A stretch of DNA of 59,176 bases, counting the filler. It is 7 parts of 7 records of this genome, joined end to end, with 100 filler letters (N's around TTAATTAATTAA, not from the genome) between each part and the next. Parts side by side here need not be neighbours in the genome. Positions count along the whole stretch, not along the records: positions 33,541 to 39,564 come from SRR31156797_11315; 6 more parts are not named here. One strand, written 5' to 3'. Both the position numbers and the translations under genes were made by a program. Below, in pieces: positions 6,492-49,378 of this stretch (the first letter of the stretch is position 1; each line of letters begins with the position of its first letter). Below the pieces are notes generated by a model. It ran no database searches. It saw nothing but the letters and a program-made list of their open reading frames with translations, and was not told the DNA's origin.

Positions 6492-6591
6492 NNNNNNNNN
6501 NNNNNNNNNNNNNNNNNNNNNNNNNNNNNNNNNNNTTAATTAATTAANNNNNNNNNNNNNNNNNNNNNNNNNNNNNNNNNNNNNNNNNNNN
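6492..6591. other. Artificial contig spacer
   Basis: N run with TTAATTAATTAA linker. Confidence 0.98.
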
Positions 6592-19905: not shown

Positions 19906-20005
19906 NNNNNNNNNNNNNNNNNNNNNNNNNNNNNNNNNNNNNNNNNNNNTTAATTAATTAANNNNNNNNNNNNNNNNNNNNNNNNNNNNNNNNNNNNNNN
20001 NNNNN
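19906..20005. other. Artificial contig spacer
   Basis: N run with linker. Confidence 0.98.
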
Positions 20006-26798: not shown

Positions 26799-26898
26799 NN
26801 NNNNNNNNNNNNNNNNNNNNNNNNNNNNNNNNNNNNNNNNNNTTAATTAATTAANNNNNNNNNNNNNNNNNNNNNNNNNNNNNNNNNNNNNNNNNNNN
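26799..26898. other. Artificial contig spacer
   Basis: N run with linker. Confidence 0.98.
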
Positions 26899-30848: not shown

Positions 30849-32492
30849 TTACATCAAGAAGCTTAGTAGAATACCTGCTGCTACAGCAGAACCAATTACA
30901 CCCGAAACGTTTGGTGCCATGGCATGCATCAATAAGTGGTTAGTTGGGTCTTCTTTGATTCCCATATTTTGAACCACACGCGCACTATCAGGCACTGCTG
31001 ATACTCCGGCAGCTCCAATCATTGGGTTAACCGGATTACTCTTTGGAGATAGCCAGTTCATGAATTTTGCAAATATTAACCCACCCATTGTAGCAACGGC
31101 AAATGATGCTGCTCCTAATCCAAAAATCATAATTGAATCAGCCGTTAGGAAAACATCAGCTTGAGTAGATGCTCCAACAGTTAATCCCAATAGGATGGTA
31201 ATAGTATCAATGAGTGCATTACTCGCTGTATTGGCCAAACGTGCTGTTACACCGCTTTCTTTGAGTAAGTTTCCGAAGAAAAGCATACCTAATAGTGGGA
31301 GTGAAGTAGGTGCAATAAATGCCGTAATTAGCAATCCAAAGATTGGGAAGAGCATTTTTTCTAATTTCGATACAGCTCGTGGTGGGCGCATTTTGATGCG
31401 TCTTTCCCTTTTACTTGTAAAAAGTTTAATAATAGGTGGTTGTATTACCGGAACCAATGCCATATAAGAGTAGGCCGCAATGGCAATTGGCCCAATCAGG
31501 TTTTTAACCAGTATGGGATCACCCATAGCATCATAGCCAATAATATTGAGACCATTAGCTAATTTTGATGATAGAAAAATCGCAGTTGGACCATCAGCAC
31601 CTCCAATAATACCAATTGCACCGGCTTCTGCTGGAGCAAATCCAAGGTATAAGGCACCAAGGAAGGTGGCAAAAATACCAATCTGTGCTGCAGCTCCGAG
31701 AATCATCAATCTTGGATTTGACATCAATGATGAAAAGTCGGTCATTGCTCCAATTCCAAGGAAAATTAATGGAGGGTACCAACCTTGTGTTACTCCCTGG
31801 TATAAATAGTTCATTACACTACCGGGCTCATAAACACCTAGTTGTAGATTGAAATCGACAGCCTGGAACATTGGGATGTTTCCAATGATGATACCTGTTC
31901 CAATAGGGATTAAAAGCAAAGGTTCATAATCATATTTAATGGCAAGGAATATGAAAATAAGACCTATAATTATCATTATGAGATTACCATGGGTTGCATT
32001 AGCAAAGCCTGAAAACTCAAAAAAGTTTAAAAGACCAGCAATGGCACCAGAATAATTTTCATAAGTTGTATGCTTCAAGATGAGTTTACCATCTTTTATG
32101 TATCCTTCTCTGGTCCCAAGGTCCAAAAGTTCATCAGTGGTTTTGTAATTTGATGATCTATCATTTGGATCGGTATTTTGGGAAAAGTGAGTTACATTTT
32201 TTGGAGTGAAAACAAGTACTACTTTATTTCCAACAATTTTCCATTTTCCTGGATATCGGGTTTTGGCCGAATCCATTTCAAATGAACCATCTTCTTTAAA
32301 AGTTAATACTTTGTAGCGTTTTACGGTTTTAGCTTCTTTGCCATCTTCGGCAATTGGTGTTGGCTGGTAGCCATCTGAATGGTCAAGCCATTTTCCCCGT
32401 AGAAGTTGTGATTGTATGTCGTTTTTCTGTCCAAATGCAGCACTGGATGCCACAAGCATGAACGAAAGAATTAGCAGAAATAGTTGCTTCAT
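30849..32492 (-). CDS. Na+-translocating decarboxylase beta subunit (OadB/MmdB) with an extra N-terminal exported domain
   Basis: YEPLLLIPIG, IFLGIGAMTDF, GIIGGADGPT, AAYSYMALVP, GAAGVSAVP, NVSGVIGSA. Confidence 0.93.
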   Translation of the reverse strand: MKQLFLLILSFMLVASSAAFGQKNDIQSQLLRGKWLDHSDGYQPTPIAEDGKEAKTVKRYKVLTFKEDGSFEMDSAKTRYPGKWKIVGNKVVLVFTPKNVTHFSQNTDPNDRSSNYKTTDELLDLGTREGYIKDGKLILKHTTYENYSGAIAGLLNFFEFSGFANATHGNLIMIIIGLIFIFLAIKYDYEPLLLIPIGTGIIIGNIPMFQAVDFNLQLGVYEPGSVMNYLYQGVTQGWYPPLIFLGIGAMTDFSSLMSNPRLMILGAAAQIGIFATFLGALYLGFAPAEAGAIGIIGGADGPTAIFLSSKLANGLNIIGYDAMGDPILVKNLIGPIAIAAYSYMALVPVIQPPIIKLFTSKRERRIKMRPPRAVSKLEKMLFPIFGLLITAFIAPTSLPLLGMLFFGNLLKESGVTARLANTASNALIDTITILLGLTVGASTQADVFLTADSIMIFGLGAASFAVATMGGLIFAKFMNWLSPKSNPVNPMIGAAGVSAVPDSARVVQNMGIKEDPTNHLLMHAMAPNVSGVIGSAVAAGILLSFLM

Positions 32493-32513
32493 TGTAATTT
32501 GCTTTTGAATGCT

Positions 32514-32936
32514 TTATTCCATTTCAATTAAAACATCATCCTGTAAAACAGAGTCACCTTCTTTTATTTTCAGCTCTTTAATGGTGCCTCCTTTTTCAGC
32601 CTGGATGTTGTTTTCCATTTTCATGGCCTCCATAATCAGTAAGGTTTGACCCTTAATTACAGTATCGCCGGGTTTAACATTAATTTTTATGATATTTCCC
32701 GGAAGTGGAGCTTTAACTTTAAATCCGCCACCTTCTGATTTCTGTAACTTACCTTCGCCAGGTTGCTTTGCTACTGGCTTACGCACTAGTTTTGGAGTTT
32801 TCCTAACAGTTGCTGCATGCTCTACTTCAACTTTATAGGTTGTACCATTAACGTCAACATCTAAATGAGTATCGTCAGTTTCAGTGACTGCGATATCGTA
32901 TTTCTGACCTTTTATAATGAATTTGAATGTTTTCAT
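32514..32936 (-). CDS. Biotin carboxyl carrier subunit (MmdC-like)
   Basis: KAPLPG, EAMKMEN biotinylation site. Confidence 0.93.
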   Translation of the reverse strand: MKTFKFIIKGQKYDIAVTETDDTHLDVDVNGTTYKVEVEHAATVRKTPKLVRKPVAKQPGEGKLQKSEGGGFKVKAPLPGNIIKINVKPGDTVIKGQTLLIMEAMKMENNIQAEKGGTIKELKIKEGDSVLQDDVLIEME

Positions 32937-32954
32937 TTTGACTATTTATCAAAA

Positions 32955-33323
32955 TTAATTTTTTATTGGTTGATTCTGAACGCCATAAATTTTTGAACTC
33001 CATGGCGAATATTTTTTCGACATATTCTTTATCGTAATAATATTCGATTCTTCATCGTGCATTTCACTGTAGTACAAGTGAATAGCAGCAGCAATAGCAG
33101 CACTGTCATCACCTGGTACATATAGATCATCTTGATCTGCACACTCATGTTTTCCCTGGCGGCGCAATTGGCTACGAATATTCATATTAATAATTCGTGG
33201 TAATTGCGAAAATACACCATAAAGAAGAACAAGTGCACCGAAAACTACCAGTATACCAACTAATGCTACTGTAAGGCCACCTTGGGCGGCAGTTGATGCT
33301 ATTATATTCATCATCGTATTCAT
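32955..33323 (-). CDS. OadG/MmdD family subunit
   Basis: G..VVF..L..L TM segment, AAIAAAIH, YSPWSSKIYG. Confidence 0.88.
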   Translation of the reverse strand: MNTMMNIIASTAAQGGLTVALVGILVVFGALVLLYGVFSQLPRIINMNIRSQLRRQGKHECADQDDLYVPGDDSAAIAAAIHLYYSEMHDEESNIITIKNMSKKYSPWSSKIYGVQNQPIKN

Positions 33324-33440: not shown

Positions 33441-33540
33441 NNNNNNNNNNNNNNNNNNNNNNNNNNNNNNNNNNNNNNNNNNNNTTAATTAATTAANNNN
33501 NNNNNNNNNNNNNNNNNNNNNNNNNNNNNNNNNNNNNNNN
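33441..33540. other. Artificial contig spacer
   Basis: N run with linker. Confidence 0.98.
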
Positions 33541-33740
33541 CTTAACGTATCGGATATTACTTGCGGCGCATGACCTAGACAACAAACCGCCCATCCTCCG
33601 ATAAAATCGAGGTACCGTTTCCCATCAGTATCCCAAAGGTACATGCCTTTACCTTTATCCATAACGACATCAGGTCTTTTTGTTATGGTAAGTAATCCAT
33701 CATTAGCAATGTCTATGAGTTCTTGCGTGGTCTTCATCAT
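33541..33740 (-). CDS. argD: Acetylornithine aminotransferase (class III), N-terminal fragment
   Basis: GKGMYLWDTDGKRYLDFIGGWAVCCLGH; GGAGG RBS; ARG boxes upstream. Confidence 0.82.
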
Positions 33741-33764
33741 GCCTCCGATCGTCCAGTATTCAAG

Positions 33765-33803
33765 CATGTATATTTATACTTCTATGATGTATATTTATGC
33801 AAT
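33765..33803. promoter_or_regulatory. Tandem ARG boxes (ArgR operator)
   Basis: caTGTATATTTATACTtc and gaTGTATATTTATGCAat: two 18-mers 3 nt apart, directly upstream of argD. Confidence 0.8.
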
Positions 33804-33993
33804 GAATTTTGTATTGATTTTCGTTCTCATTTAACGACGGCTTTAAAATCTACCCGAGTGAGTGAACAGAGTTATTGTGAAGAGCGATAATTTTCTCCAT
33901 TCCTGGACAGGAAATTCCATGCGGCATCAAGAAAGGCATCGGAAGCCGACGCTTGGTTTTCTCCCGATCCCTATGATGAAGGAGTTAAATCAC

Positions 33994-34620
33994 CTAAAAC
34001 TGCCAGCTGTTAAACGCAAAAGGAGGGACTTCCGGTTTTTCAGTATCGTTTTTTTCGTTTTTACAGTATTCCAGATATTCTTCATATATCTTTTGAATTT
34101 CTTCATTTTCCAACTGGGGAATAACTTTACTGGCTTCGGTCAGGAAATGATATTCATCCCGACCTTTTTCCCGGCCTTTTGCCGTATGCATATCATAGGC
34201 ATAATCGGGAACCTCTACGCCTCTTCCATGGGAAAATTCTTTGATGAGTTTATTTTTCAGATGATCGCTGCTCCGTTCTTTCGTCTGCTGGCACAGGAAC
34301 CGTATGGCATGGATAAAGAAAATAGGGCGGTCTCCGTCACTATAGGGAAATTCTTTGCGGATATTATTCAATGTATAGACTAACTGCGGTGCCTGAAGAG
34401 CTCCGAATCCGATGTCTTCCACGCTTATCGCCATTAGGCGGCGCCACATTTTATCTTCAAACTGGGAGCTGGTAATATACATTTCATAAGCGGCACAGAG
34501 AGCATTGTGCTCCAATCCTCTGCGGATGGATTTCTGAAGCATCGAAATAACTTCATCTCCCGGAATTCCATTACGCGTTTTTACATTGGACCAGGGATCA
34601 TATGACATAAAATCACTCAT
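33994..34620 (-). CDS. Stand-alone RarA/MgsA C-terminal-like protein, no ATPase domain (paralogue B)
   Basis: ISMLQKSIRRG, RRLMAISVEDIG, DGDR, LC...KERSSD, VPDYAYDMHT; no Walker motifs. Confidence 0.75.
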   Translation of the reverse strand: MSDFMSYDPWSNVKTRNGIPGDEVISMLQKSIRRGLEHNALCAAYEMYITSSQFEDKMWRRLMAISVEDIGFGALQAPQLVYTLNNIRKEFPYSDGDRPIFFIHAIRFLCQQTKERSSDHLKNKLIKEFSHGRGVEVPDYAYDMHTAKGREKGRDEYHFLTEASKVIPQLENEEIQKIYEEYLEYCKNEKNDTEKPEVPPFAFNSWQF

Positions 34621-34632
34621 TTTTATATTCCT

Positions 34633-35466
34633 TTAACCTTTGATTCCGGTGCTTTTTATACCGGCAATAAAATACTTCTGGGTGATGGTGAAGAGAATGA
34701 TGACAGGAATAACGGCCATAGCGGCTCCTGCCAACTGGACAGGAATATCTCCGCCGCCCCTTTCCTGAAAATACTGAAGGCCCGGTGTAATGAACTGCTT
34801 CTTTTCAGTTTTGATAAAAAGAAAGGGATCAAGGAAATTGTTCCATGTGTTTATGAAGGTAAACAGGATTGTTGTAGCAATAACAGGCTTTGACAGGGGT
34901 AGGAATATCCTGAGAAGAATCTGACGGTGTCCCGCACCGTCTATCAACGCCGCCTCACTGATATCCTTCGGGATCTCTCTGAAGAACTCCAGAATAAACA
35001 TCAGGTAGAGCACTTCACTGATTTCTGGAATGACGATGACCCAAAGACTGTCCAGGAGATGTATGTTTTTGTAAAAGAGATATCTGGGGACCATTGTGGC
35101 TTCTGGAGGAACCATATAGGCAATGAAGAACAGCAGAAAGAGTATCTTTTTTCCGGGGAACTTCAAATGCGACAGGGCATAACTTGCCGGCAGAGTGACA
35201 ACCAATCGGAATAGTATGATAAGAGTTACAGCCACAAATGTGTTGACGTACCAGTGATAAAAAGACTGTTTTCCGAGGATCTTCGCATAATTTGTCAGAA
35301 TGGGCACAGTTGGATAAAAAATGCTTTTATAGACTAAGCCTTGTGGCCTGAAAGAAATAATGACCATCATGATAAAAGGCGTAATCATCAAAATGGCTAG
35401 AAACCACATACAAAAGAAAAACAACAGATTTTTAGTTTTAGATCCACTTTGCTTCGTCAATTCCAT
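34633..35466 (-). CDS. Carbohydrate ABC permease (MalG-type)
   Basis: IPKDISEAALIDGA, FINTWNNFLDP. Confidence 0.93.
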   Translation of the reverse strand: MELTKQSGSKTKNLLFFFCMWFLAILMITPFIMMVIISFRPQGLVYKSIFYPTVPILTNYAKILGKQSFYHWYVNTFVAVTLIILFRLVVTLPASYALSHLKFPGKKILFLLFFIAYMVPPEATMVPRYLFYKNIHLLDSLWVIVIPEISEVLYLMFILEFFREIPKDISEAALIDGAGHRQILLRIFLPLSKPVIATTILFTFINTWNNFLDPFLFIKTEKKQFITPGLQYFQERGGGDIPVQLAGAAMAVIPVIILFTITQKYFIAGIKSTGIKG

Positions 35467-36347
35467 CTCTTCCTCAATCTCATAATTGCCAGAGTGATAA
35501 GCAGAATGACAACCGTTAAAAAAATAGCATGGGCCGATGCATAACTAAATTTGTAGTATCTGAACGCATCTTCATAAATCCGAAAAGAGGATACTTTAGT
35601 AGCATCTCCGGGGCCGCCGTTCGTCAAAGCGACGATGACTGTAAAGTTCCTGAAAGAATTAATGGTATTGATTATCAATAGAAAGCCCGTAATGGGTTTA
35701 AGAGTGTTCAGAGTTATGCAGCGGAACTCCTGAAAAGGAGTCGCTCCTTCAATGGAAGCCACTTCGTACATCGATTTTGGAATATCCTGTAATGCTGCCA
35801 GGTAGGTAATGATACTGAAAGCCAGAGTCACCCATGTGGTGATCAGGGCTGTTGTCGGCAAGGCACTTACCGTGCCTGTCAGCCATTGCGGCAACAGATC
35901 GTCTGTTCCCACCAGAAGCCTGATTAGAGAATTGATCGGTCCGTCATAGGGGTTCAACAGGTATTTCCAGACAATACCCACAGCGATGAGGTTGGTAACA
36001 TAAGGCATATAAAACATGGACCGAACTGCCGGCCTTCCCTTGAATTGGGTATTTAAGAGCATTGCCGAAGCCAGAGAGAAGACCATGGTGGAAAGAACAT
36101 AGACCAGAGAAAAAACTACCGTGTGGCCAAGAGAGATCCAAACGGACTCCGACTGCACTAGATTGAGAAAATTCTTCAAACCGGCAATAGTCATTGAGTC
36201 GATATTCTGTATTGAATTTCTGTTTAACAGACTGATCCCGATCTCATAGACAACGGGATAGAGCTTGAATACGGCAAAAAAAACAAAGAATGGTGCAATA
36301 AAAATAAATGCCGTAATTCTGTCATGCCTGCAGCTTCGAATTGACAT
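35457..36347 (-). CDS. Carbohydrate ABC permease (MalF-type)
   Basis: LQDIPKSMYEVASIEGA, LTNGGPG; ATG at 36347 follows AGGGG. Confidence 0.92.
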   Translation of the reverse strand: MSIRSCRHDRITAFIFIAPFFVFFAVFKLYPVVYEIGISLLNRNSIQNIDSMTIAGLKNFLNLVQSESVWISLGHTVVFSLVYVLSTMVFSLASAMLLNTQFKGRPAVRSMFYMPYVTNLIAVGIVWKYLLNPYDGPINSLIRLLVGTDDLLPQWLTGTVSALPTTALITTWVTLAFSIITYLAALQDIPKSMYEVASIEGATPFQEFRCITLNTLKPITGFLLIINTINSFRNFTVIVALTNGGPGDATKVSSFRIYEDAFRYYKFSYASAHAIFLTVVILLITLAIMRLRKRWN

Positions 36348-36364
36348 TTTTTCCCCTGTGAACA

Positions 36365-36396
36365 ATCCGACAGGATACGATGGGATCCTGTCGGAT
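36365..36396. other. Perfect 12-bp intercistronic stem-loop after the binding-protein gene
   Basis: ATCCGACAGGAT, 8 nt, ATCCTGTCGGAT; typical position for an mRNA stabiliser in ABC operons. Confidence 0.7.
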
Positions 36397-36407
36397 ATTC
36401 TGTACTG

Positions 36408-37718
36408 TTAGATGTTGCTAATGGCTTCATTGACACGATCACAAATATTTTTGATAGTCGTATCAAGGTCCTGCTGATCGAGGAAGTATTTTTCCCCTTC
36501 CTCTTTGATAATGGATGTATACTCCGCCCCGACAGAACCGGTAATGTCCGTAGGAAGAATATTCATACCATTGTCGATCAAAGCATTGTAGATCTCATCT
36601 GTTGTAATGCTGCCGTTTGAAGCATCCGCAGTGGCCTGGAACACCTTTGCCTGTTCTTCAGAACTCAGATTGACCTGTGCAGGGATTCCCCCTTCGTAGA
36701 TCCACTGATTTTTGGCTCTCCAGGCAGCATACTCAACGGCGGCAGCTTTGTGAGCGGCATTCTTGTTGATGGATATGTACCCCATGGAGTTGAAATTATT
36801 ATTACTTTCAGGAGTTCCGCTCGTCGGAATGGAGACGATTCCGTAAGACCAGTCTTTGGGATAGTCTTCCTGACTGTTAAGTAGCCTTGTATACCAGTTT
36901 CCCTGGGAAAACATACCGAGATTATCTACGGTAGCGTAGTAATTCCACTCTACGCCTTTAGCTTTCAGCTCTCTCGCATCCATCTGGATTTTCCAGTCTT
37001 TCCCAAGAGACTTGTACCACTCAAGCGCTTTGGCGAACTCGGCATCATCAAAATTACAGCTTCCGTCTTCCTTGTAAAAGGGGATCCCTTTCTGAGACGC
37101 CAGCATATAGACCCAAGGAGCATCGAGTTGCATGAATGATCCGTACACATCAACCTCTGAATCAGTCAGCTTTTCAGAAATGGTGATATAGTCATCCCAA
37201 GTCCAGGGCGCTTTGGGGTAGGGCACTCCCGCTTCGTCAAATATTTTTTTATTATAGTACAAACAAAAAATCTCCTGTTTGTAAGGCAGAGCGTAAAATT
37301 CGCCGTCATTTTCGAGCTGGATATATTTACCCCAAATTGAATCAACATCAATATTGAATTCTTTCATCAGTTCGCCGAGGGGCTGAAAAAACCCAGCATC
37401 GACTCTGGTCCCGTAATCTCTCGGACCCAAAGACTCGATTACGTCAATGTCACCGCCGGCAAGAAGATCGATGTTTACTTTCTGAACATGATCATCTCCC
37501 GTACCGGGAGTCGCTTCCACCCGAACTTCGATTCCTGTTTCCGCAGTAAACGCGGCATTCATGTCGTTATACCATTTTTCCGCCGCATAGGTGGATCTTG
37601 TCACGGTTGTAACAACATTCTCTTCCACCTGCTCCATCCCTCCCGAAGCAAAAATTGCCAAGGGACAAATCAGCAGCATACAAAGAAGTACAAAAATTTT
37701 TCTAAGTGTCTTTTTCAT
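36408..37718 (-). CDS. Carbohydrate ABC solute-binding protein
   Basis: Spirochaete-style signal IFASGGME, YALPY...LYYNKKIFDEAGVPYP..PWTWDD. Confidence 0.92.
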   Translation of the reverse strand: MKKTLRKIFVLLCMLLICPLAIFASGGMEQVEENVVTTVTRSTYAAEKWYNDMNAAFTAETGIEVRVEATPGTGDDHVQKVNIDLLAGGDIDVIESLGPRDYGTRVDAGFFQPLGELMKEFNIDVDSIWGKYIQLENDGEFYALPYKQEIFCLYYNKKIFDEAGVPYPKAPWTWDDYITISEKLTDSEVDVYGSFMQLDAPWVYMLASQKGIPFYKEDGSCNFDDAEFAKALEWYKSLGKDWKIQMDARELKAKGVEWNYYATVDNLGMFSQGNWYTRLLNSQEDYPKDWSYGIVSIPTSGTPESNNNFNSMGYISINKNAAHKAAAVEYAAWRAKNQWIYEGGIPAQVNLSSEEQAKVFQATADASNGSITTDEIYNALIDNGMNILPTDITGSVGAEYTSIIKEEGEKYFLDQQDLDTTIKNICDRVNEAISNI

Positions 37719-37760
37719 TTTCTTCTCCCTATTTTTAATCCATTACTCATGTGGATTTCT

Positions 37761-38324
37761 TCAAGGATTTTGAATAATAGCCATGACTCTCTCTCTGTAG
37801 GTCTTATCGCGATTCTCCATTTCAGGGGAGACAACAGATCCTACCTCATAGAAATCAATTTCATTCTTACCTTCCTGCTGTCCCTGAAGGGTATGTTTGT
37901 CTACGGCGTAATCGGGGATTTCCGGATTAGCAGTGCCCATCTTATAAGCCTTCTGAATCCAGCAGTACATTTCATCACTGCTGCGGTCTTTGACGCAACT
38001 GCAAAGATAACGGACCGCGTGAATGGCAAATAATCCGCGATCACCATCCTGCTTGATGGTTTTTCTCATCTGATCCAGACTGTTCATCACAACCGGAGCC
38101 ATGGGAGTTCCGAAGCCCACATCTTCAACGCTGATCGTCTTGAGACGAAACCATAGGTATTCTTCCAGGTTCTCACTGGTAATCAACATTTCATAGGCGA
38201 GCAGAGCGGCATTTTCCGGATGATTTCTCCGAATTTCTTTTTGCAAAGCTGATATGACAAGGTCAGCGGCAAGACCGGAAACTGTCTGGCATTTTTGCCA
38301 TGGGTCGTAGGGGGCATTCTCCAT
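37761..38324 (-). CDS. Stand-alone RarA/MgsA C-terminal-like protein, no ATPase domain (paralogue A)
   Basis: ISALQKEIRR, RLKTISVEDVG, DGDR, YLC...KDRSSD, IPDYAVDKHT; no Walker motifs. Confidence 0.75.
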   Translation of the reverse strand: MENAPYDPWQKCQTVSGLAADLVISALQKEIRRNHPENAALLAYEMLITSENLEEYLWFRLKTISVEDVGFGTPMAPVVMNSLDQMRKTIKQDGDRGLFAIHAVRYLCSCVKDRSSDEMYCWIQKAYKMGTANPEIPDYAVDKHTLQGQQEGKNEIDFYEVGSVVSPEMENRDKTYRERVMAIIQNP

Positions 38325-38483
38325 AACTTCAAATAAATCCTTTGTTATTAGAAAAATAATCTATATTATTCTTTTGTTAATAATTCATTGTATGCATTTC
38401 AATAAATTATTCTCAATAATGTAGTAAATCAATATTTTTGCTTTTTGAATCATTTGCTAAAATATTCTTGAGAGGAACAGTTT

Positions 38484-39371
38484 GTGACCAAGAAAATACA
38501 GAAAGAGGAAATTAATGTGACTCCCGATTGCCGGGAATCATTTCTTTTAAGTGATATGTTGCAACTCCCTCCCTTCAGAACAGCGAGATTAAGGGAAGGG
38601 GGATACAGCTTTCAGGCTCCTGGGTTCTGGATACAAAGAACGGGACAGAGGGGATTTCATGTACTGGTGATCACCTTTTCTGGACAGGGTCTTATTCATT
38701 TTGAGGATGGTTCAACAATCGCATTGACAGTGGGTACAGCTTTTTTCTCGGCAGCGACTGGGCAGGGGCATGTAGAAATTGTTGACGGTCAGGAAAAATG
38801 GGAGATGCTCTGGATGATATTTGAAGAATCATCGCCCTGGATTCAAACCAATTGCTGGGATTGGGAAGTGTTTCAATTGTCAAGGTCAGACAAAATTAAA
38901 GAAGCTATTATTTCGATTTTCCACGAAGAGACCTATAAAGATCCTGATTCCCTCAGGCTCCAGACAATCTACGAAGATCTGCTATTAATCCTCTTGAAAC
39001 GGGAGATAAACTGGACTGAACCAAAAACCATTGCTTTAAACCGATCCAAATTTTCTACACTGTGGTCCAGTGTGTCTCAGAATCCGGGATATAACTGGAA
39101 TGTCGATTTATTGAGTGAGGAAGTCAATATCAGTAAGGCTCATTTTACAAGATTATGTACTCAGCTTTACAATCAACCCCCGGCCCAGTTGTTAAAGGAA
39201 ATTAGGATGGATATTGCCACGAATCTCATACGTAACTCTAATCTTCTGATCTCCGAGATTGCAGAATATGTGGGATACAGCAGTTCTGCCACCTTCTCTA
39301 TAGCCTACAGGAAATTTTACGGATATCCTCCCTATTCAATTCGGCAGCAAAAAAGAGAGAATCAGAAATAA
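38484..39371 (+). CDS. AraC-family transcriptional regulator
   Basis: N-terminal cupin-like domain; C-terminal ISEIAEYVGYSSSATFS.AYRKFYGYPP; divergent from the ABC operon. Confidence 0.92.
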   Translation: MTKKIQKEEINVTPDCRESFLLSDMLQLPPFRTARLREGGYSFQAPGFWIQRTGQRGFHVLVITFSGQGLIHFEDGSTIALTVGTAFFSAATGQGHVEIVDGQEKWEMLWMIFEESSPWIQTNCWDWEVFQLSRSDKIKEAIISIFHEETYKDPDSLRLQTIYEDLLLILLKREINWTEPKTIALNRSKFSTLWSSVSQNPGYNWNVDLLSEEVNISKAHFTRLCTQLYNQPPAQLLKEIRMDIATNLIRNSNLLISEIAEYVGYSSSATFSIAYRKFYGYPPYSIRQQKRENQK

Positions 39372-39564: not shown

Positions 39565-39664
39565 NNNNNNNNNNNNNNNNNNNNNNNNNNNNNNNNNNNN
39601 NNNNNNNNTTAATTAATTAANNNNNNNNNNNNNNNNNNNNNNNNNNNNNNNNNNNNNNNNNNNN
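39565..39664. other. Artificial contig spacer
   Basis: N run with linker. Confidence 0.98.
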
Positions 39665-41674: not shown

Positions 41675-44600
41675 ATGAATAAATTCTACGTTTTTAATAG
41701 CAATGTTAAGCAGATAAAAATAAAAAGACTATCGATGTTTTGCATAGGTTATAATAGGTTAGCATTAATATTACTTTTTATTCTAAACACAATACTTATA
41801 AATGGAAATACCATTTCAGCACAATGTACCATATCTCCATCTACTCAAGATGCATCTACTACAGATGACTCTCCTGTTGGGAATAGTTTTACAGCTTGTC
41901 AGGATGGTGTTATCTCTACCATTAGAGTTCTAGGTGTTATAGACCAGGCGGATGAAACATTAACAATTTATGATGGAGAAGGAATAAATGGAACGGTTTT
42001 AGGTACTATTTCAGGTATATCATTAACAGAAGCCACAGGTCCGAATACCTGGAGTTCAATAGATGTATCTTCTGCTAATATAAACGTTACTTCGGGTAAT
42101 ATATATACATTCTACTTTAATAGTTCAATTGCAATTTATCGAGCAAGAGAAGACAATATTTTAGGCGGGCAAATGTATCAGTTTATTGAGGGAAGCTTAC
42201 AGATTTATTCAGCTGAAGATATTCGTTTTGAGCTTGATATTGTAGGGCCCTCTAATGCTGCTCCTACAGTCACTGCACCTAGTGCACCAAATGTAAATGA
42301 GAATGACACAAATGTTGCTTTGGCAGATGATATTCATGTTTCAGATGCCGATGGAGATGATCAAACTCTTACATTTACAATTACTGGAGGAACACTTAGT
42401 ATAGGAACCGCAGGTATTTCTTTTGGAGCTGGTGGAAATGGCACTTCGAGTTATACGGCAGCTGGTACACTAGCTGCAATTAATACTGCCTTGGATGCAG
42501 CAACTTTTACACCTACTCCTAATTTAAGTGGGCTTAATGCAGGAATAATTTCTTTTGCGACTTTTGATGGAACAGCAACTTCGAATGCTGCTTCGGTTAG
42601 TTTTAATATAAATGATACATCTATTCCTATATTAACTTCTAGTGCGCCTATTGATGATTCTGATAATGTTTATTTAGGATCTAATATTGTTCTTGATTTT
42701 GATGACAATATGGTTGCGGGAACAGGAAATATTACCATAAGACGTTTAAATGATGACACTGTCTTTGAACAAATTGCAATTAATGATCCTAAAATTACAA
42801 TCACATCAAATCAAGTAATAATTAATCCTGCTGGAATTTTTTCAAGAGGTCTTGCTTATTATATCGAGATTGACGCGACTGCATTGGACGACGATGCAGG
42901 AAATTCATTTGCAGGAATTAGTGGCAATTCAACTCTTAATTTCACAGCAGTTGATGTTGTAATTAACGAAGTAGTGACTGATCCGCAGCAGGATTGGAGC
43001 ACCTATGGTTTTAACGGAACAATTGGCGCTGGTGCAATAAGCACAGGAACTGATGAATGGATTGAACTACTGATTAATTCTAATGGTATTGATTTTATAG
43101 GTTGGACTTTAGAGCTTTTGGATGGAACCGATGTTGTAGGAGATTTAACAAATACAGGTACTTTTGATGATATTGTTTATTCAGGGATAGGCTCATTCAA
43201 TAATACCAAATCTGGGGATTATTTGATACTTGGTAATGTCGATGGTAGTGGTGCCATGAATAATTCTATTACCATCAATTTAAAAGATCCAAGCGGAGCA
43301 ATTGTTGATGCAGTTGTTATTGGAGGTGGAACTGGGGAAGCTCCTTCTGGAAATGCTGATAATATTTATAATGAATCGGTTCAACGCTATTCCAATGGTT
43401 TGGATACTGATGTGCATAATTATGATTTTACTTTAGGAATGGCAAGTCTAGGTTCTGCAAACACAGGTCCAAGTGTGATCCTTTCAGCATCTGAAGCTAC
43501 CATTGTAGAAGCTGATGGCATCTCCACATTAACTGCTGAACTTAGTGAAATATCAAGTCAGGATGTAACGGTTACTTTGGCGGTGGATGGATCAAGTTCA
43601 GCTGCCCCTGCTGATTATACTTTATCTTCTACATCTATTGTTATTAATGCTGGAAGTTTAACGGGTACAGCTACTATAACAGCTTCACAAGACCTGTCGG
43701 ATGAAAGCAATGAAACGGTTATTGTTAGTATAACCAGTGTTACAAATGGAACAGAAGCTGGTACTCAACAAGAAACAGTAACGATTAATGATGACGATGC
43801 GATACCTACTGTAGCTTTTAATTTAACTTCTTCAAACGGTTCGGAGGTGATTGGCAGTGCTGATTTGCAAATTGACTTATCGGTTGCAAGTGGGCTTACT
43901 GTTACAGTTGATTATGCAGTAAGTGGTACTGCAACAGATGCAGATTTTACCATGACGGATGGTACTCTAACAATTGCTCCTGGTAATGAAAATGAAAACA
44001 TCACCATTTCAAGTATTGTGAATGATCTTTTGGATGAGAATAACGAAACGGTAATCGTGACGCTTACAAATCCTACAAATGCCACATTGGGAACCAATAC
44101 GGTTCATACCTATACGATTAATGACAATGATGCCACACCATCCATAGCTTTTAATGCGACTTCTTCCAATGGTTCGGAGGCGATTGCCAGTGCCAACTTG
44201 CAAGTTGATCTTTCTGCAGCAAGTGGTCTGACCGTAACGGTTGACTATACGGTTACAGGTACTGCGACGGATGCAGACTATACTTTAGAGAATGGAACAC
44301 TGACAATTGAGGAAGGTGATGAAAGTGAGAACATCACCATTGCAAGTATTGTAAATGACTTTCTGGATGAAAATGACGAAACGGTAATTCTTACTTTATC
44401 AAATCCGACAAATGCGACACTTGGTAGTAATACTACTCATACTTATACAATTAATGATGATGATGTGACAGGCTTCTTCTTTGCGGAAACAGACGGTGAT
44501 ACACAAGTATTCGAATCGGGTGCAAATGATTCTTTCACCGTGCAATTAGATGTTATACCTTCTTCAAATGTTGTTATTGATCTTGTTAATGGCAATATCA

Positions 44601-47600
44601 GTGAGATTTCCTTGAGTACAGCAAACCTGACTTTTACACCAGACAACTGGAATGTTCCACAGGTAGTAAGTTTAAATACCGTTGATGACAATTATGCCGA
44701 TGGAGATCAAAATGTAATCATTACTCTCAGTATCAATGATGCAAACAGTGATGATGCATTTGATAATCTTGCAGACGAAACGGTAATAGTTACTTCTGTA
44801 GATGATGAAGTTCCCGGATTTAGTCTGTCAAAAACGACAGCTATCATTAGTGAAGATGGAGGAACTGATAATTTTACCGTGGTTTTGGATTGTCAACCAC
44901 TGACCGATGTTGTCTTGGAAGTAAGTAGTGGAGATACTGGTGAAGTAACTGTTTCATCACCTTCCTTAACATTTACAACAGGTAATTGGGATACTCCTCA
45001 AACCATTGATCTTACTGGTATTGATGATGCTATTGTGGATGGAAATAAAAATGTATCTATTACTATTGCTGTAAATGATGCAAGAAGTGACAATGTTTTT
45101 GATGCAGTACCCAACCAAAGCGTAATATGTACCAATGAGGATAATGAAGAAGCTGGTTTTACTTTTAGGGAAACCGATGCTTATACACTTGTTAAGGAAA
45201 CTCATACAACAGATCAGTTTTCAGTTGTTTTGAATGGACAACCAGCTAGTGATGTGGTTTTAAATATTAGTAGCGGGGATACCGGAGAGGCTACTGTTAG
45301 TTCCAGTAGTCTAACTTTTACCTACGACAACTGGAATATATCCCAAACCGTTATTGTCACTGGAGTTGATGATGCAATAGCGGATGGTTCTCAGGAAACA
45401 ACTATTACTATTTCCGTGAATGCCCCTGGTAGTCACGATGCTTTTGATTCTTTAGAAGATAAAGAAGTTACAGTAATAAATGTTGATGATGATACGGCAG
45501 GATTTACAATTTCTCAAACTAATGGAGGTCCAAAAGTTAATGAAATAGGAATAATTGATACGATGTGGGTTGTTTTAAATAAGCAACCAGCTTCTGATGT
45601 TGTTCTTGGTTTTGAGAGTAGCGATGAAAATGAGATTATTCGAGAGCATGATGAGAATAGGTTTACTGTATCTAATTGGAATATGCCACAAGATTTTCGA
45701 ATCAGGGGAATGGCTGACTATATTGTTGATGGTGAAGTTTATACGGACCTAACAATTAAAGTACTAGATGCATATAGTGACAATACTTATGATGCCTTAC
45801 CTGACAGGGTAATAAGTGTTGTTAATATCGATAATGATATTGCTAGTTTTTCTTTATCTCCAGCAAACCTTAATGTTGTTGAAGATCATGGAACTGAAAC
45901 ATTTAAAATCACTCTTGGGACTGCAGCAGAAGGAGATGTAAGTTTTAACATTGCTAGTTCTGACGATGGTGTTGTTACTGTTTCTCATTCAAGTATTACA
46001 ATATCTGCAGGTAATACAGAATCTGCTAATATTACTCTTACTATTCAGGATAATGATATAGCTGACGGAACAAAAGATGCAAATATTATTGTAAGTATTA
46101 ATCAAGCTGTATCTTTCGATCCATTCGATGATCTTGAAGATGAAAATCTGCCAATTCAAGTTACCGATGATGAGGTAATTGAGTTGATTGTTGCAGAATT
46201 AGGTGGAACGAGTAGTGTAAGCGAGACAGGCAGTACAGATTCATTTACTGCAGTTCTTGGAGCCAAACCTGCTACGGATGTTGTCATAAATATTAGTAGT
46301 GATGATATCGGAGAAGTTACTGTCAATCCGACTCAATTGACTTTTACCAATGCTAATTGGGATTCTCCTCAAATTGTTACTTTAACGGGTATTGATGATG
46401 AATTTACAGATGGAGAACAGACCAGTACAATTACTTTAGCTGTTGATGCTGTAAACAGTGACGATAGTTTTGATACGATGCCGGATGAAACCGTTTCTGT
46501 TATAACCAGTGATAATGAAGTAGCTAATTTTACCATTGTTGAATCTGGAGGATCAACAGAAATTGATGAAACCGCTAACCAGGACGATTTTACTGTAGTT
46601 CTGGATGAACGTCCTGTCAATGATGTAGTATTTGATATTTCATGCAATGCTACTGATGAAGCAACAGTAGATCTATCAACGCTTACTTTTACAACTGATA
46701 ATTGGGATATGCCTCAAAGTATCTCGATTACAGGTGTAGACGATAATATTCTGGATGGTTCTCAAATTGCAATTATCACGGTAAGTGTAAATACTGCATC
46801 AAGCGATGACAGATATGATGCTGTTGCTGATAAGACGGTTACAGCCTCTAATGGAGATGATGATGTGGGATCATTCACTGTAGCAGAATCTGAGGGAACT
46901 ACTGTAGTACAAGAGCCAAATACAACGGACGCATTCACGGTTGTTCTGGATATCCAACCAATAACTGATGTTGTGTTTACCATCAGTAGTAATGATACAG
47001 ATGAGGCAACTGTTGATCAGTCAACTCTTACATTTACAAATGCAAATTGGAATATCGCACAAACTGTAATTGTTACTGCTGCGGACGACTATTATGTAGA
47101 TGGAGGACAGGCTTCTGAAATTAAAATCAGTGTAGATGATGCCAATAGTAACGATGGATTTGATACAGTAGAAGATCAAACAGTTAATGTTGTTACAAAT
47201 GACGATGATGTAGCTGGATTTACCATTACTCAGTCTGGAATTAATACGACAGTTTCTGAGCCTAATACTCAGGATGCATTTTTGGTAGTATTGGATGCTC
47301 AGCCATTAACTGATGTAGTCCTCAATTTGAAAAGTGATGATAGTAGTGAAGCCAGTTTAGATGCTTCCTCCATAACATTTACAAATGCTAATTGGAATGT
47401 TGCACAAACGATCACTGTAACTGCTGAAGATGATTATTTAGTTGATGGATCTCAAATATCCACAATTACATTGAGCATTGATAAAACTGGCAGTGATGAT
47501 TATTTTGATACTGTTTTGGACCAGGAAATTGACTGTATAACCCATGATGATGATGTGGCAGGATTCACAATTGTAGAAAGTGACGGAAACACTTCTGTTA

Positions 47601-49278
47601 CCGAAGGTGGAAACGGAGATTCATTTACAATCGTTTTAGATGGGCAACCAGATTCAGATGTGGTAATCGATATTATCAGTGCAAATATGGGTGAAGTAAC
47701 AGTTAGTCCTACCTCACTTACTTTTACCAATACCAATTGGAATAATGCTCAAACAGTAAATGTGATCTGTGTAAACGACGATGTAGATGATGGTGATCAA
47801 ATTGTTGGCATTACAATTAGTATTAATGATGATAACAGCGATGATAATTTTGATTCTGTTGCTAATCAAAGTTTGAATGCAACAACAGTTGATAATGATA
47901 CAGCAGGATTTACATTATCAAAAACTACAGCAAGTGTGGATGAATCTGGAACAACTGATGACTTTACTGTTGTACTGGATGCTGAGCCTCTTGTGGATGT
48001 TGTAATTGATATCAGTAGTAATGATACAGAAGAAGCAAGTGTTTCTCCTTCAACACTTACATTTACCAGTGCCAATTGGTCTTCACCACAAACAATAAGT
48101 ATAACAGGTGAAAACGATTATATAATTGATGGTAATCAATCAGCTGATATATTAGTTAGTGTTGATGATTCAAGCAGTGATGATACCTTTGATTTAGTGG
48201 AAGATCAATATGTGAACTGCACAACAACTGATAATGATGTTGCTGATTTTACTCTAACAGAATCTGATGGAAATACAATGGTTGATGAATCTGGTACAAC
48301 GGATAACTTCTCCTTAGTATTGGATGCACAACCTTTTGTTGATGTTGTTTTTGATATTGGAAATGCAGATCCGGGAGAAGTTTCAACTTCTGTTAGCCAG
48401 GTTACTTTTACCAATGCCAACTGGAATATTCCACAAACGATAACATTAACGGGTGTTGATGATTCGGATGTAGACAACGCCCAAACCACTTTGATAACTG
48501 TTTCGGTTGATCCTATGGCAAGTGATGACAATTTTGATGCAGTGGCTGATCAAACAATAAGCGTAACTACTACAGATGATGACGAACCATACATTTCCTT
48601 TACTTCTGCAAGTCAGGTAAGCCATAGTGAAAATGGTAGCTTGATTATTACTGCAGAATTATCTAATCCAAGTTCAAGAATGATAACACTGCCATTTACT
48701 GTGGAAAGTAGTAGTTCAGCAGATGGTACCGATTATTCGATTACCAGCAGCCCTATAACAATTGCAGCAGGACAAACTTCAGGTAATATTGTAATTTCTA
48801 TTAGTGCTGATGATTTAGATGAAATGGACGAAACTGTGATTCTAAGTATGGGTACTCCGGTCAATGCCATTCATGGTAGTACAACAACTCATACGGCGAT
48901 CATTACTGATGATGATCATGCACCTGAAATTACATCAACTCAGAGTTTTTCTATTAATGAAAATTCGGCTAATACAACAAGTTTAGGTTTTGTTGGTGCA
49001 ACAGATGCCGATACAGGAACTACATTCCAAAACTGGAGTATTGTAACAGGTAATTCTGATGGTATTTTTGGTATTGATATTGATACTGGGGAATTATTTG
49101 TTGCAGATAATACAAATCTGGATTACGAATCAACAACGCAATATACTCTTAGTCTTACTGTAGGTGATGGATTCAATACCAGTTCTCAGCAAGACGTAAG
49201 CATCAATATTAATGATCTGAATGACAACACTCCAGTAATTTTAGCGAGTCAATCATTCAGTATTGATGAAAACTCTGC
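41675..49278 (+). CDS. Giant secreted Calx-beta/cadherin/Ig-like repeat protein (adhesin), truncated
   Basis: More than 2500 codons, D/T/S-rich; Big_5-like (P.DD...V...I.L.F), lamin-tail-like (VVINEV...DEWIEL), Calx-beta (DE.NETVIVTL..TINDDD) and cadherin (INENS...ATDAD...LDYE...NDN.P) units. Start codon uncertain. Confidence 0.88.
44471..48585 (+). repeat. 12 tandem ~115-aa Calx-beta-like repeats
   Basis: Recurrent FTVVLD.QP..DVV...LTFT..NWN..Q...VDD...DG.Q...DD.FD units, counted by eye. Confidence 0.8.
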
Positions 49279-49378
49279 NNNNNNNNNNNNNNNNNNNNNN
49301 NNNNNNNNNNNNNNNNNNNNNNTTAATTAATTAANNNNNNNNNNNNNNNNNNNNNNNNNNNNNNNNNNNNNNNNNNNN
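49279..49378. other. Artificial contig spacer
   Basis: N run with linker. Confidence 0.98.

Follow-up and report, generated by a model that had tools for sequence, protein, structure and literature searches.

The window analysed here, a stretch of 59,176 bases, consists of seven contigs separated by six spacers, each a pair of 44-base N runs (twelve runs in all, at 6492-6591, 19906-20005, 26799-26898, 33441-33540, 39565-39664 and 49279-49378), so that genes on either side of a spacer are not true neighbours. We focus on the contig at 33541-39564 (6,024 bp, GC 0.424), which carries an operon in which an ATP-binding cassette (ABC) importer is bracketed by two genes, A and B, each encoding a free-standing copy of the C-terminal domain (tail) of the AAA+ ATPase RarA/MgsA. 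The operon lies on the minus strand and begins with A (37761-38324, 187 aa), followed by a solute-binding protein (SBP) of CUT1 type (36408-37718, Pfam SBP_bac_1 at 100.9 bits), permease 1 (35457-36365, BPD_transp_1 at 41.2 bits), permease 2 (34633-35466, BPD_transp_1 at 55.5 bits, with a 10-nt overlap with permease 1) and, as last gene, B (33994-34620, 208 aa). Divergent from it, on the plus strand, is a gene for an AraC-family regulator (38484-39371) matching Pfam HTH_18 at 62.6 bits and HTH_AraC; in NCBIfam this protein has AraC-like matches, every one under the equivalog cut-offs. The initial annotation had described this arrangement, and all its open reading frames (ORFs) were recovered in place, in agreement with Pfam. 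The divergent intergenic region between araC and A (38325-38483) contains a promoter-like match on the minus strand (38416-38387) obtained by a consensus scan only, in which such matches were not more numerous than the shuffled expectation, making this weak evidence.

One SBP_bac_1 protein and two BPD_transp_1 permeases correspond to the composition of a CUT1 importer, and the nearest solved relatives of the SBP are generic sugar or oligosaccharide binders (best 4rk2, E 4.2e-23). No gene for a cognate ABC ATPase (ABC_tran) was found on the 6-kb contig, nor inside the cassette in the eleven related Spirochaetota loci L001-L011; CUT1 systems often share an ATPase encoded elsewhere. On the other side of B, 42 nt after its stop codon, a terminator-like hairpin is found at 33936-33952 on the minus strand (7-pair stem with 5 G-C pairs and a T-rich tail, a pattern match only). 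The next gene, cut by the contig end, encodes the N-terminal 75 codons of a class-III aminotransferase (33543-33767, minus strand, Pfam Aminotran_3 at 37.2 bits). It is separated from B by a 226-nt gap and the hairpin and is not kept beside the cassette in related loci; it probably belongs to a separate unit. A scan of the operon contig with Rfam gave no matches. The contig stops 453 bp beyond B, so the absence of a catabolic enzyme from the operon cannot be read from the window alone.

A and B share 45% identity over 176 columns (E 9e-52), and their alignment contains all the motifs previously listed for the pair (YDPW, IS.LQK.IRR, AYEM.ITS, W.RL..ISVED.GFG, DGDR, IHA.R.LC, K.RSSD and PDYA.D.HT..G). 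Both narrowly missed the 27-bit gathering cut-off of the Pfam MgsA_C profile (PF12002), with 26.1 bits for B and 22.0 bits for A; many close homologues carry a precomputed PF12002 match, so the miss is marginal. The MgsA_C motifs (S...K..R; R......ED.G; K; P....D) are present, as seen when five RarA ORFs were aligned to the family profile with hmmalign, and a sequence search matched B to 2r9g, a solved C-terminal fragment, at E 5.7e-5. B was modelled with AlphaFold2 using 69 diverse homologues; the model is helical throughout and has a mean predicted local distance difference test (pLDDT) score of 94.2. At E<0.01, Foldseek matched this model to RarA/MgsA C-terminal fragments only (2r9g at 4.6e-7, 3pvs at 2.4e-5, and also 3bge, 8g28, 3ctd and 2qw6; 8g28, 2r9g, 3pvs and 3bge range from 4.6e-7 to 3.6e-4), the next match having an E value of 0.7. 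An independent, all-against-all structural scan (VIA) gave the same result, with Z scores of 12.3-16.0 and root-mean-square deviations of 1.3-2.0 Å over 85-116 residues (Z 16.0 for 8g28, 14.7 for 2r9g, 14.2 for 3pvs and 13.9 for 3bge), residues 136-208 of B being barely covered by the fold matches. B thus shares its fold, with detectable sequence homology, with the tail of RarA, MgsA, Mgs1 and WRNIP1. The clamp-loader collar (domain III of RFC, T4 gp44 and E. coli gamma/delta) came next, a similar helical bundle with Z 5.5-8.0 over about 84-99 residues and 8-16% identity, and such Z scores for helical bundles may reflect a common arrangement only. The collar domain holds the clamp-loader oligomer together and, to our knowledge, is never free-standing in those complexes.

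Whereas full-length RarA, MgsA and WRNIP1 are AAA+ ATPases, A and B are free-standing proteins of the 190-210-aa class without the AAA+ module: no Walker A or Walker B motif was found in either by regular expression, and neither has an AAA match in Pfam. The initial annotation had read A and B as paralogues with a RarA/MgsA-tail fold detached from its ATPase, and the alignment, profile and structure comparisons bear it out on both points. Neither protein has a Pfam match to RbsD/FucU (PF05025), and all fold matches with Z>12 are RarA tails. PADLOC gave only a 16.8-bit LmuA/DUF4297 match for A, which was disregarded. B also carries, at its extreme C-terminus (33994-34056), an aromatic tail of the conserved pattern F-x-[YF]-N-x-W-Q-[FYH]; the confidence of the model is lower there (pLDDT 77-87). 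The same tail occupies the same position in the B-type and most Bacillota members (L001-L031, L076, L109 and L129) whatever the neighbouring transporter, and is absent from A-type and Chloroflexota members. This C-terminus could be a docking peptide.

That the two genes might be fragments of rarA can be set aside. We searched five genomes reached via related loci, that is, relatives of the source organism, and all five hold stand-alone genes (E 1e-58 to 1e-73) and, apart from these, longer frames (445-799 aa) with weaker matches to the profile (E 1e-14 to 1e-21), which were taken as full-length RarA. In five of the longer frames the match to the family model falls at residues ~257-409, the expected place of a RarA tail. 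Moreover, the stand-alone forms are complete ORFs conserved in more than 100 loci.

Stand-alone homologues, which the initial annotation had proposed to search for, are common. A word-indexed search with B returned 1,029 proteins at E<=1e-3, nearly all of 200-210 aa, whose names in the source databases go from 'hypothetical protein' up to 'replication-associated recombination protein RarA', and a HMMER scan with A returned 1,246 representatives of 50%-identity clusters at E<=1e-3 (431 at E<=1e-10). When one genome per species was scanned for the motif IPDYAxDxHT (185,579 genomes), 594 stretches were obtained, 566 of which encode a relative. The family is sparse within a phylum: among 301 genomes sampled from the phylum to which genome G003 belongs, 2 had a match at E<=1e-25. 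Most recorded carriers belong to Chloroflexota (Anaerolineae and relatives), Spirochaetota or Bacillota, with a few Verrucomicrobiota, Candidate Phyla Radiation (CPR) and archaeal metagenome-assembled genomes; the cultivable carriers include isolates of Sphaerochaeta, Paenibacillus, Cohnella and Sporosarcina. No informative fused partner domain was seen in ten longer family matches, one of which, with an overlapping ABC_membrane, looks chimeric. P0121 (378 aa) is the sole protein seen to carry the complete domain twice in the same chain; only one sequence of it was found, on a Logan contig of 3,684 bp, and it may be a tandem pair joined artefactually by assembly or a frameshift. PHROGs contains two phage families with the same composition, MgsA_C alone (phrog_16866 and phrog_33349), in a setting apparently devoid of transport genes. 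In addition, one Atlas cluster of the stand-alone domain is half viral and forms with these phrog families a separate mobile-element branch. No description of the stand-alone family or of its operon context was found in the full-text literature with MgsA_C/RarA C-terminal terms (supplementary files lying outside the search), in line with the novelty first supposed.

To describe the genomic context, we gathered 37 loci with B as query and 80 with a 19-sequence alignment. Genes were called with a codon-model caller anchored on verified genes, their products were clustered and the representatives were named by Pfam/NCBIfam. The tally set comprises 101 loci with 112 family genes, after removal of duplicates (L011, L079, L104 and L114) and of distant or deep-branching loci (L035-L037, L055, L056, L074 and L122); also outside it are six loci in which the caller missed the family gene (L022, L065, L080, L120, L127 and L128). 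A transporter gene directly adjoins 65 of the 112 family genes and lies within three genes of 77, confirming the supposed link to transport operons. A nucleoside marker (inosine-uridine (IU) nucleoside hydrolase, PNP/UDP phosphorylase, ribokinase or Bmp SBP) was found within three genes for 42 of the 112. In the same loci, transporter-labelled genes make up 0.31, 0.30 and 0.28 of the genes at offsets 1, 2 and 3, a share that drops to 0.15 one position further out and to 0.07-0.08 at offsets 5-7, a near/far contrast that may be inflated by the labelling, which was done by BLAST to seeds taken near family genes on products of our own gene caller. Five transporter types stand beside the family, among them CUT1 ABC, Bmp/PnrA-type ABC, major facilitator superfamily (MFS) plus NCS2, and the EIIC of the lactose/cellobiose-family phosphotransferase system (PTS). 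As for enzymes, an IU-nucleoside hydrolase lies within three genes in 28 of 75 loci, and a TRZ/ATZ amidohydrolase (22 loci), an M20 deacylase (11), a uridine-phosphorylase-like enzyme (5), ribokinase, an NPP-type phosphodiesterase and an uncharacterised FAD-dependent oxidoreductase recur as well. Across the family, the setting is thus not the sugar operon alone, as proposed at first: nucleoside/riboside uptake and catabolism (IU hydrolase, uridine-phosphorylase-like enzyme, ribokinase, Bmp/PnrA) are met as much as sugar.

The arrangement of these operons depends on the lineage. In Spirochaetota, AraC divergent from A-SBP-permease-permease-B was found by tblastn in 10 of the 11 loci L001-L011, the eleventh being cut, and also in L106, with an AraC homologue beside the cassette in 9 of the 11. 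An NPP-type phosphodiesterase gene then follows B in L001, L003, L005, L006 and L106, and a ribokinase gene lies downstream in L001 (318.5 bits against a TIGR02152 cut-off of 299.65), with a homologue of the same cluster in L005. Eight Spirochaetaceae loci carry a cassette with the A-type gene only; seven extend past the permeases and L102 ends there. Three layouts were observed in Oscillospiraceae and other Clostridia: ATPase-permease-permease-SBP-family gene-AraC-FAD oxidoreductase; a putative two-component pair followed by SBP-permease-permease-family gene; and a divergent LacI gene next to family gene-MFS-xanthine/uracil permease-FAD oxidoreductase. In Erysipelotrichaceae and Sporosarcina, a divergent RpiR gene precedes the family gene and a lactose/cellobiose-family PTS EIIC gene, or the EIIC gene is followed by two tandem copies of the family gene. 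The FAD-dependent oxidoreductase (Pyr_redox_2 plus PF21688), whose nearest solved structure is the uncharacterised 3nlc, accompanies the family in nine Bacillota loci (L012:9552-10928, L013:9626-10993, L014:11304-12701, L018:9312-10721 and L129:7618-9048, and also L016, L017, L020 and L133) with four types of transporter (CUT1, Bmp, MFS/NCS2 and PTS), and may be its enzymatic partner there. Finally, Chloroflexota carry an operon made of ribokinase, TRZ/ATZ amidohydrolase, IU nucleoside hydrolase (RihC-like), M20 deacylase of the ArgE/DapE type, family gene, Bmp/PnrA-type SBP, ATPase and two permeases (L107:2558-7555 and about 20 other loci). Variants of it have the Bmp ABC genes, the family gene and the nucleoside hydrolase gene with a 4-nt overlap, or a uridine-phosphorylase-like gene directly upstream. 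The presence of a deacylase and a deaminase in the Chloroflexota operon leads us to speculate that its substrate could be a modified nucleoside.

The relationship of A and B was examined in a maximum-likelihood phylogeny covering 125 family proteins, with five RarA tails as the root. Support is given as the Shimodaira-Hasegawa-like approximate likelihood ratio test (SH-aLRT). The A-type proteins group in a 19-row clade restricted to Spirochaetota (SH-aLRT 99), and the B-type proteins in a 13-row clade (99) that lies inside a 27-row one (97), the rest of which is from Bacillota or from loci without a phylum record. The Chloroflexota members of nucleoside operons branch deeper than both. All these belong to a 121-row uptake-operon clade, which is split from its deep-branching relatives with SH-aLRT 100 and a branch of 1.17, and from RarA by a branch of 3.37; the CPR, archaeal and Verrucomicrobiota members lie outside it. 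Among these outer members, those of L055, L056, L074 and L122 (CPR, Woesearchaeota, archaeon and Verrucomicrobiota) are deep-branching and have no labelled transport or nucleoside neighbours. The family differs from RarA by its long branch, by its extra conserved residues and by its place in uptake and catabolic operons of genomes that keep a separate RarA-like gene.

Residue conservation was examined in 69 diverse members, in B numbering. R33, D69 and K114 are invariant, and S26, Q29, K30, I32, A40, E46, W59, R61, E68, R116, P138, D143, H145, T146 and G149 are conserved in at least 90% of them; A and B both keep all the family-conserved residues. Alignment by hmmalign with RarA of the same genomes shows that ten positions (S26, K30, R33, R61, E68, D69, G71, K114, P138 and D143) are common to RarA, while Q29, R34, W59, R116, T146, G149 and, largely, H145 are specific to the family. 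In the model, S26/Q29/K30/R33 and R61/E68/D69 would each line one helix face, to judge from their recurrence at i, i+3/4 and i+7 along helices 21-33 and 52-73. The initial annotation had seen in the conserved polar residues a catalytic or anion-binding site. Their conservation held family-wide, but the ten positions common to RarA are an inherited feature of the domain and bring no argument for a new catalytic site. The added Trp, His-Thr pair, Gln and two Arg would be residue types of sugar or nucleobase binding sites. An explanation for the conserved residues of the RarA tail itself was not met in the RarA literature covered, including excerpts of PMC6101539.

Altogether, A and B are paralogues within a widespread uncharacterised family of ~190-210-aa proteins, each made solely of the helical C-terminal (collar/tetramerisation) domain of RarA/MgsA. 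The family is a component of solute-uptake operons and not of DNA repair, and its deepest well-sampled branches lie in nucleoside-scavenging operons. We tentatively favour, as a reading with a little less than an even chance, that it is a cytoplasmic, oligomeric protein binding or converting an imported riboside, nucleoside or related glycoside. Because the transporters beside the family fall into five unrelated types, the protein would not be expected to dock on the transporter. With transporters of five kinds and regulators of at least three families, the only constant is a solute entering the cytoplasm, which suggests that the protein acts on the solute. Since nucleoside scavenging is the deepest and most uniform context and genes for ribokinase and an NPP-like enzyme often come after the Spirochaetota cassettes, a riboside, nucleoside or glycoside is favoured as ligand. 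The solute imported by the adjoining transporter would thus reach the cytoplasm, where the family protein would bind it in a polar site formed by RarA-inherited residues (S26, K30, R33, R61, E68, D69, K114 and D143) and family-specific ones (Q29, R34, W59, R116, H145 and T146), and the bound compound would be isomerised, converted or handed to the next enzyme. Such a mode would be akin to that of the mutarotases RbsD, FucU and RhaM. These oligomeric proteins of the cytoplasm are small, need no cofactor and have their genes directly next to those of transporters and kinases, irrespective of the kind of transporter (rbs, fuc and rha). The analogy is functional only, their folds being unrelated to that of A and B.

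Several observations weigh against binding or conversion of a small molecule. No enzyme fold above the helical-bundle background was found among the Foldseek and VIA matches to the B model, and the fold, that of an oligomerisation collar, also occurs in clamp loaders (Z 5.5-8). The positions common to RarA could be structural or serve protein or nucleic-acid binding, RarA being no metabolic enzyme. As for context, 35 of the 112 family genes, some of them on short contigs, have no labelled transporter within three genes, and the other neighbours of transporter-less genes include SpoU methylase with histidine phosphatase, tryptophanyl-tRNA synthetase and a ZIP transporter. Relatives also exist in other settings, namely the phage families and the CPR and archaeal members without transport context, and the possible inflation of the near/far contrast mentioned above counts here too. 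Finally, a simple replacement of RbsD was considered and rejected, as 3 of 5 family-carrying genomes also have RbsD and the two show no complementary distribution.

Other explanations of the same operons have to be weighed. The protein might be a regulatory accessory that senses a small molecule such as a nucleotide or a sugar phosphate and tunes uptake or transcription via the regulator, a shared ABC ATPase or another partner. A divergent regulator gene is indeed found immediately upstream of 22 of 115 family genes (AraC 14, LacI 4 and RpiR 4), the fold is a protein-protein oligomerisation module, the Spirochaetota cassette lacks an ATPase and must borrow one, and the conserved site is rich in Lys and Arg, as would fit an anionic ligand. 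However, the regulators vary with the lineage (AraC, LacI, RpiR or a putative two-component pair), the five transporter types make one common protein partner unlikely, and the Chloroflexota gene stands between enzyme and transporter genes with no adjacent regulator; we thus consider this role rather unlikely. [quoted passage not shown] It is consistent with the ten positions common to RarA tails, with the free-standing tails of phage protein families, with the aromatic tail ending the B-type proteins and with the interaction of bacterial RarA with SSB via the SSB C-terminal domain, as reported in excerpts of PMC6101539. Yet the 121-row uptake clade is split from its context-less relatives (SH-aLRT 100, 1.17) and from RarA (3.37) and has gained conserved residues of its own (Q29, R34, W59, R116, T146 and G149), transport and catabolic neighbours dominate, and no DNA-metabolism gene was found among the annotated neighbours in this clade, so that a RarA-like function appears quite improbable.

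The pair itself raises the question of an obligate A/B hetero-oligomeric enzyme processing the imported solute, close to the heteromer proposed in the initial annotation. Both genes are kept in 10 of the 11 loci L001-L011 and in L106, tandem family pairs occur in L030, L031 and L109, P0121 joins two complete copies, and every conserved residue is kept in both paralogues. As a general rule, however, an obligate heteromer did not stand: the eight Spirochaetaceae cassettes with A-type only (seven of them with sequence past the permeases) and the single copy found in Bacillota and Chloroflexota operons speak against it, and the A/B pair in one cassette is a Spirochaetota speciality, Bacillota cassettes holding one B-like gene. 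Moreover, the B-type is nested in a Bacillota clade and the A-type forms a separate one, so that the pair looks assembled from two lineages and not like an old heterodimer; together with the tree, the A-only and B-like-only cassettes argue against an obligate complex. P0121, for its part, is one sequence on one 3.7-kb contig. Such an enzyme is therefore improbable, and a protein that binds or converts the imported compound remains our preferred reading. A complex prediction for A with B, run without controls, gave scores of 0.18 and 0.07 (mark 0.34) and speaks neither for nor against binding.

As to the origin of the operon, the closest rows of the family tree are L114_6977 for A (77% identical; a row identical to L003_4248) and L001_8001 for B (80%), and these nearest relatives suggest that the contig probably comes from a Sphaerochaetaceae-like organism. 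The GC contents of the seven contigs are, in order, 0.30, 0.31, 0.55, 0.35, 0.42, 0.35 and 0.35; the 0.55 and 0.42 pieces are strongly unlike the other five, and the bin may mix organisms. Two other contigs of the window carry features of their own. An ORF of more than 2,551 aa at 41675-49330 on the plus strand runs into the contig end and is built of numerous ~100-aa repeats in which D, T, S and N are abundant; read by eye only, it looks like a giant surface adhesin. On the contig preceding that of the operon, three co-directional ORFs of 547, 140 and 122 aa (30849-33323, minus strand) encode a protein in which a signal-like start and a soluble stretch of ~150 aa precede a polytopic membrane part, a protein with a biotinyl-type AMKM motif, and a membrane protein, respectively. 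We take them to resemble a Na+-translocating decarboxylase set whose membrane subunit has an unusual N-terminal extension.

RarA, Mgs1 and WRNIP1 are among the most conserved genome-maintenance proteins. Their molecular function remains obscure, according to an excerpt of PMC8735627. In the family described here, a known domain stands apart from its ATPase and has become established in uptake operons; databases recognise the domain and not the function. This RarA-tail domain, with most of the conserved polar residues intact, is fixed in hundreds of nucleoside and sugar uptake operons. At least, the database name 'replication-associated recombination protein RarA' is misleading for the stand-alone genes. 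The stronger claim, that the family is a new kind of enzyme or an obligate substrate handler for nucleosides, ribosides and related glycosides built on a clamp-loader-collar fold, and so the first small-molecule function for MgsA_C, is a doubtful one. If it were true, the ligand site would be largely inherited from RarA, and the RarA/WRNIP1 tail would also bind a nucleoside- or nucleotide-like ligand. If the proteins do bind or convert a small molecule, they would identify an unannotated step in nucleoside and riboside scavenging by gut Bacillota, Spirochaetota and environmental Chloroflexota, and would give a direct clue, open to testing, as to what is recognised by the tail of RarA.

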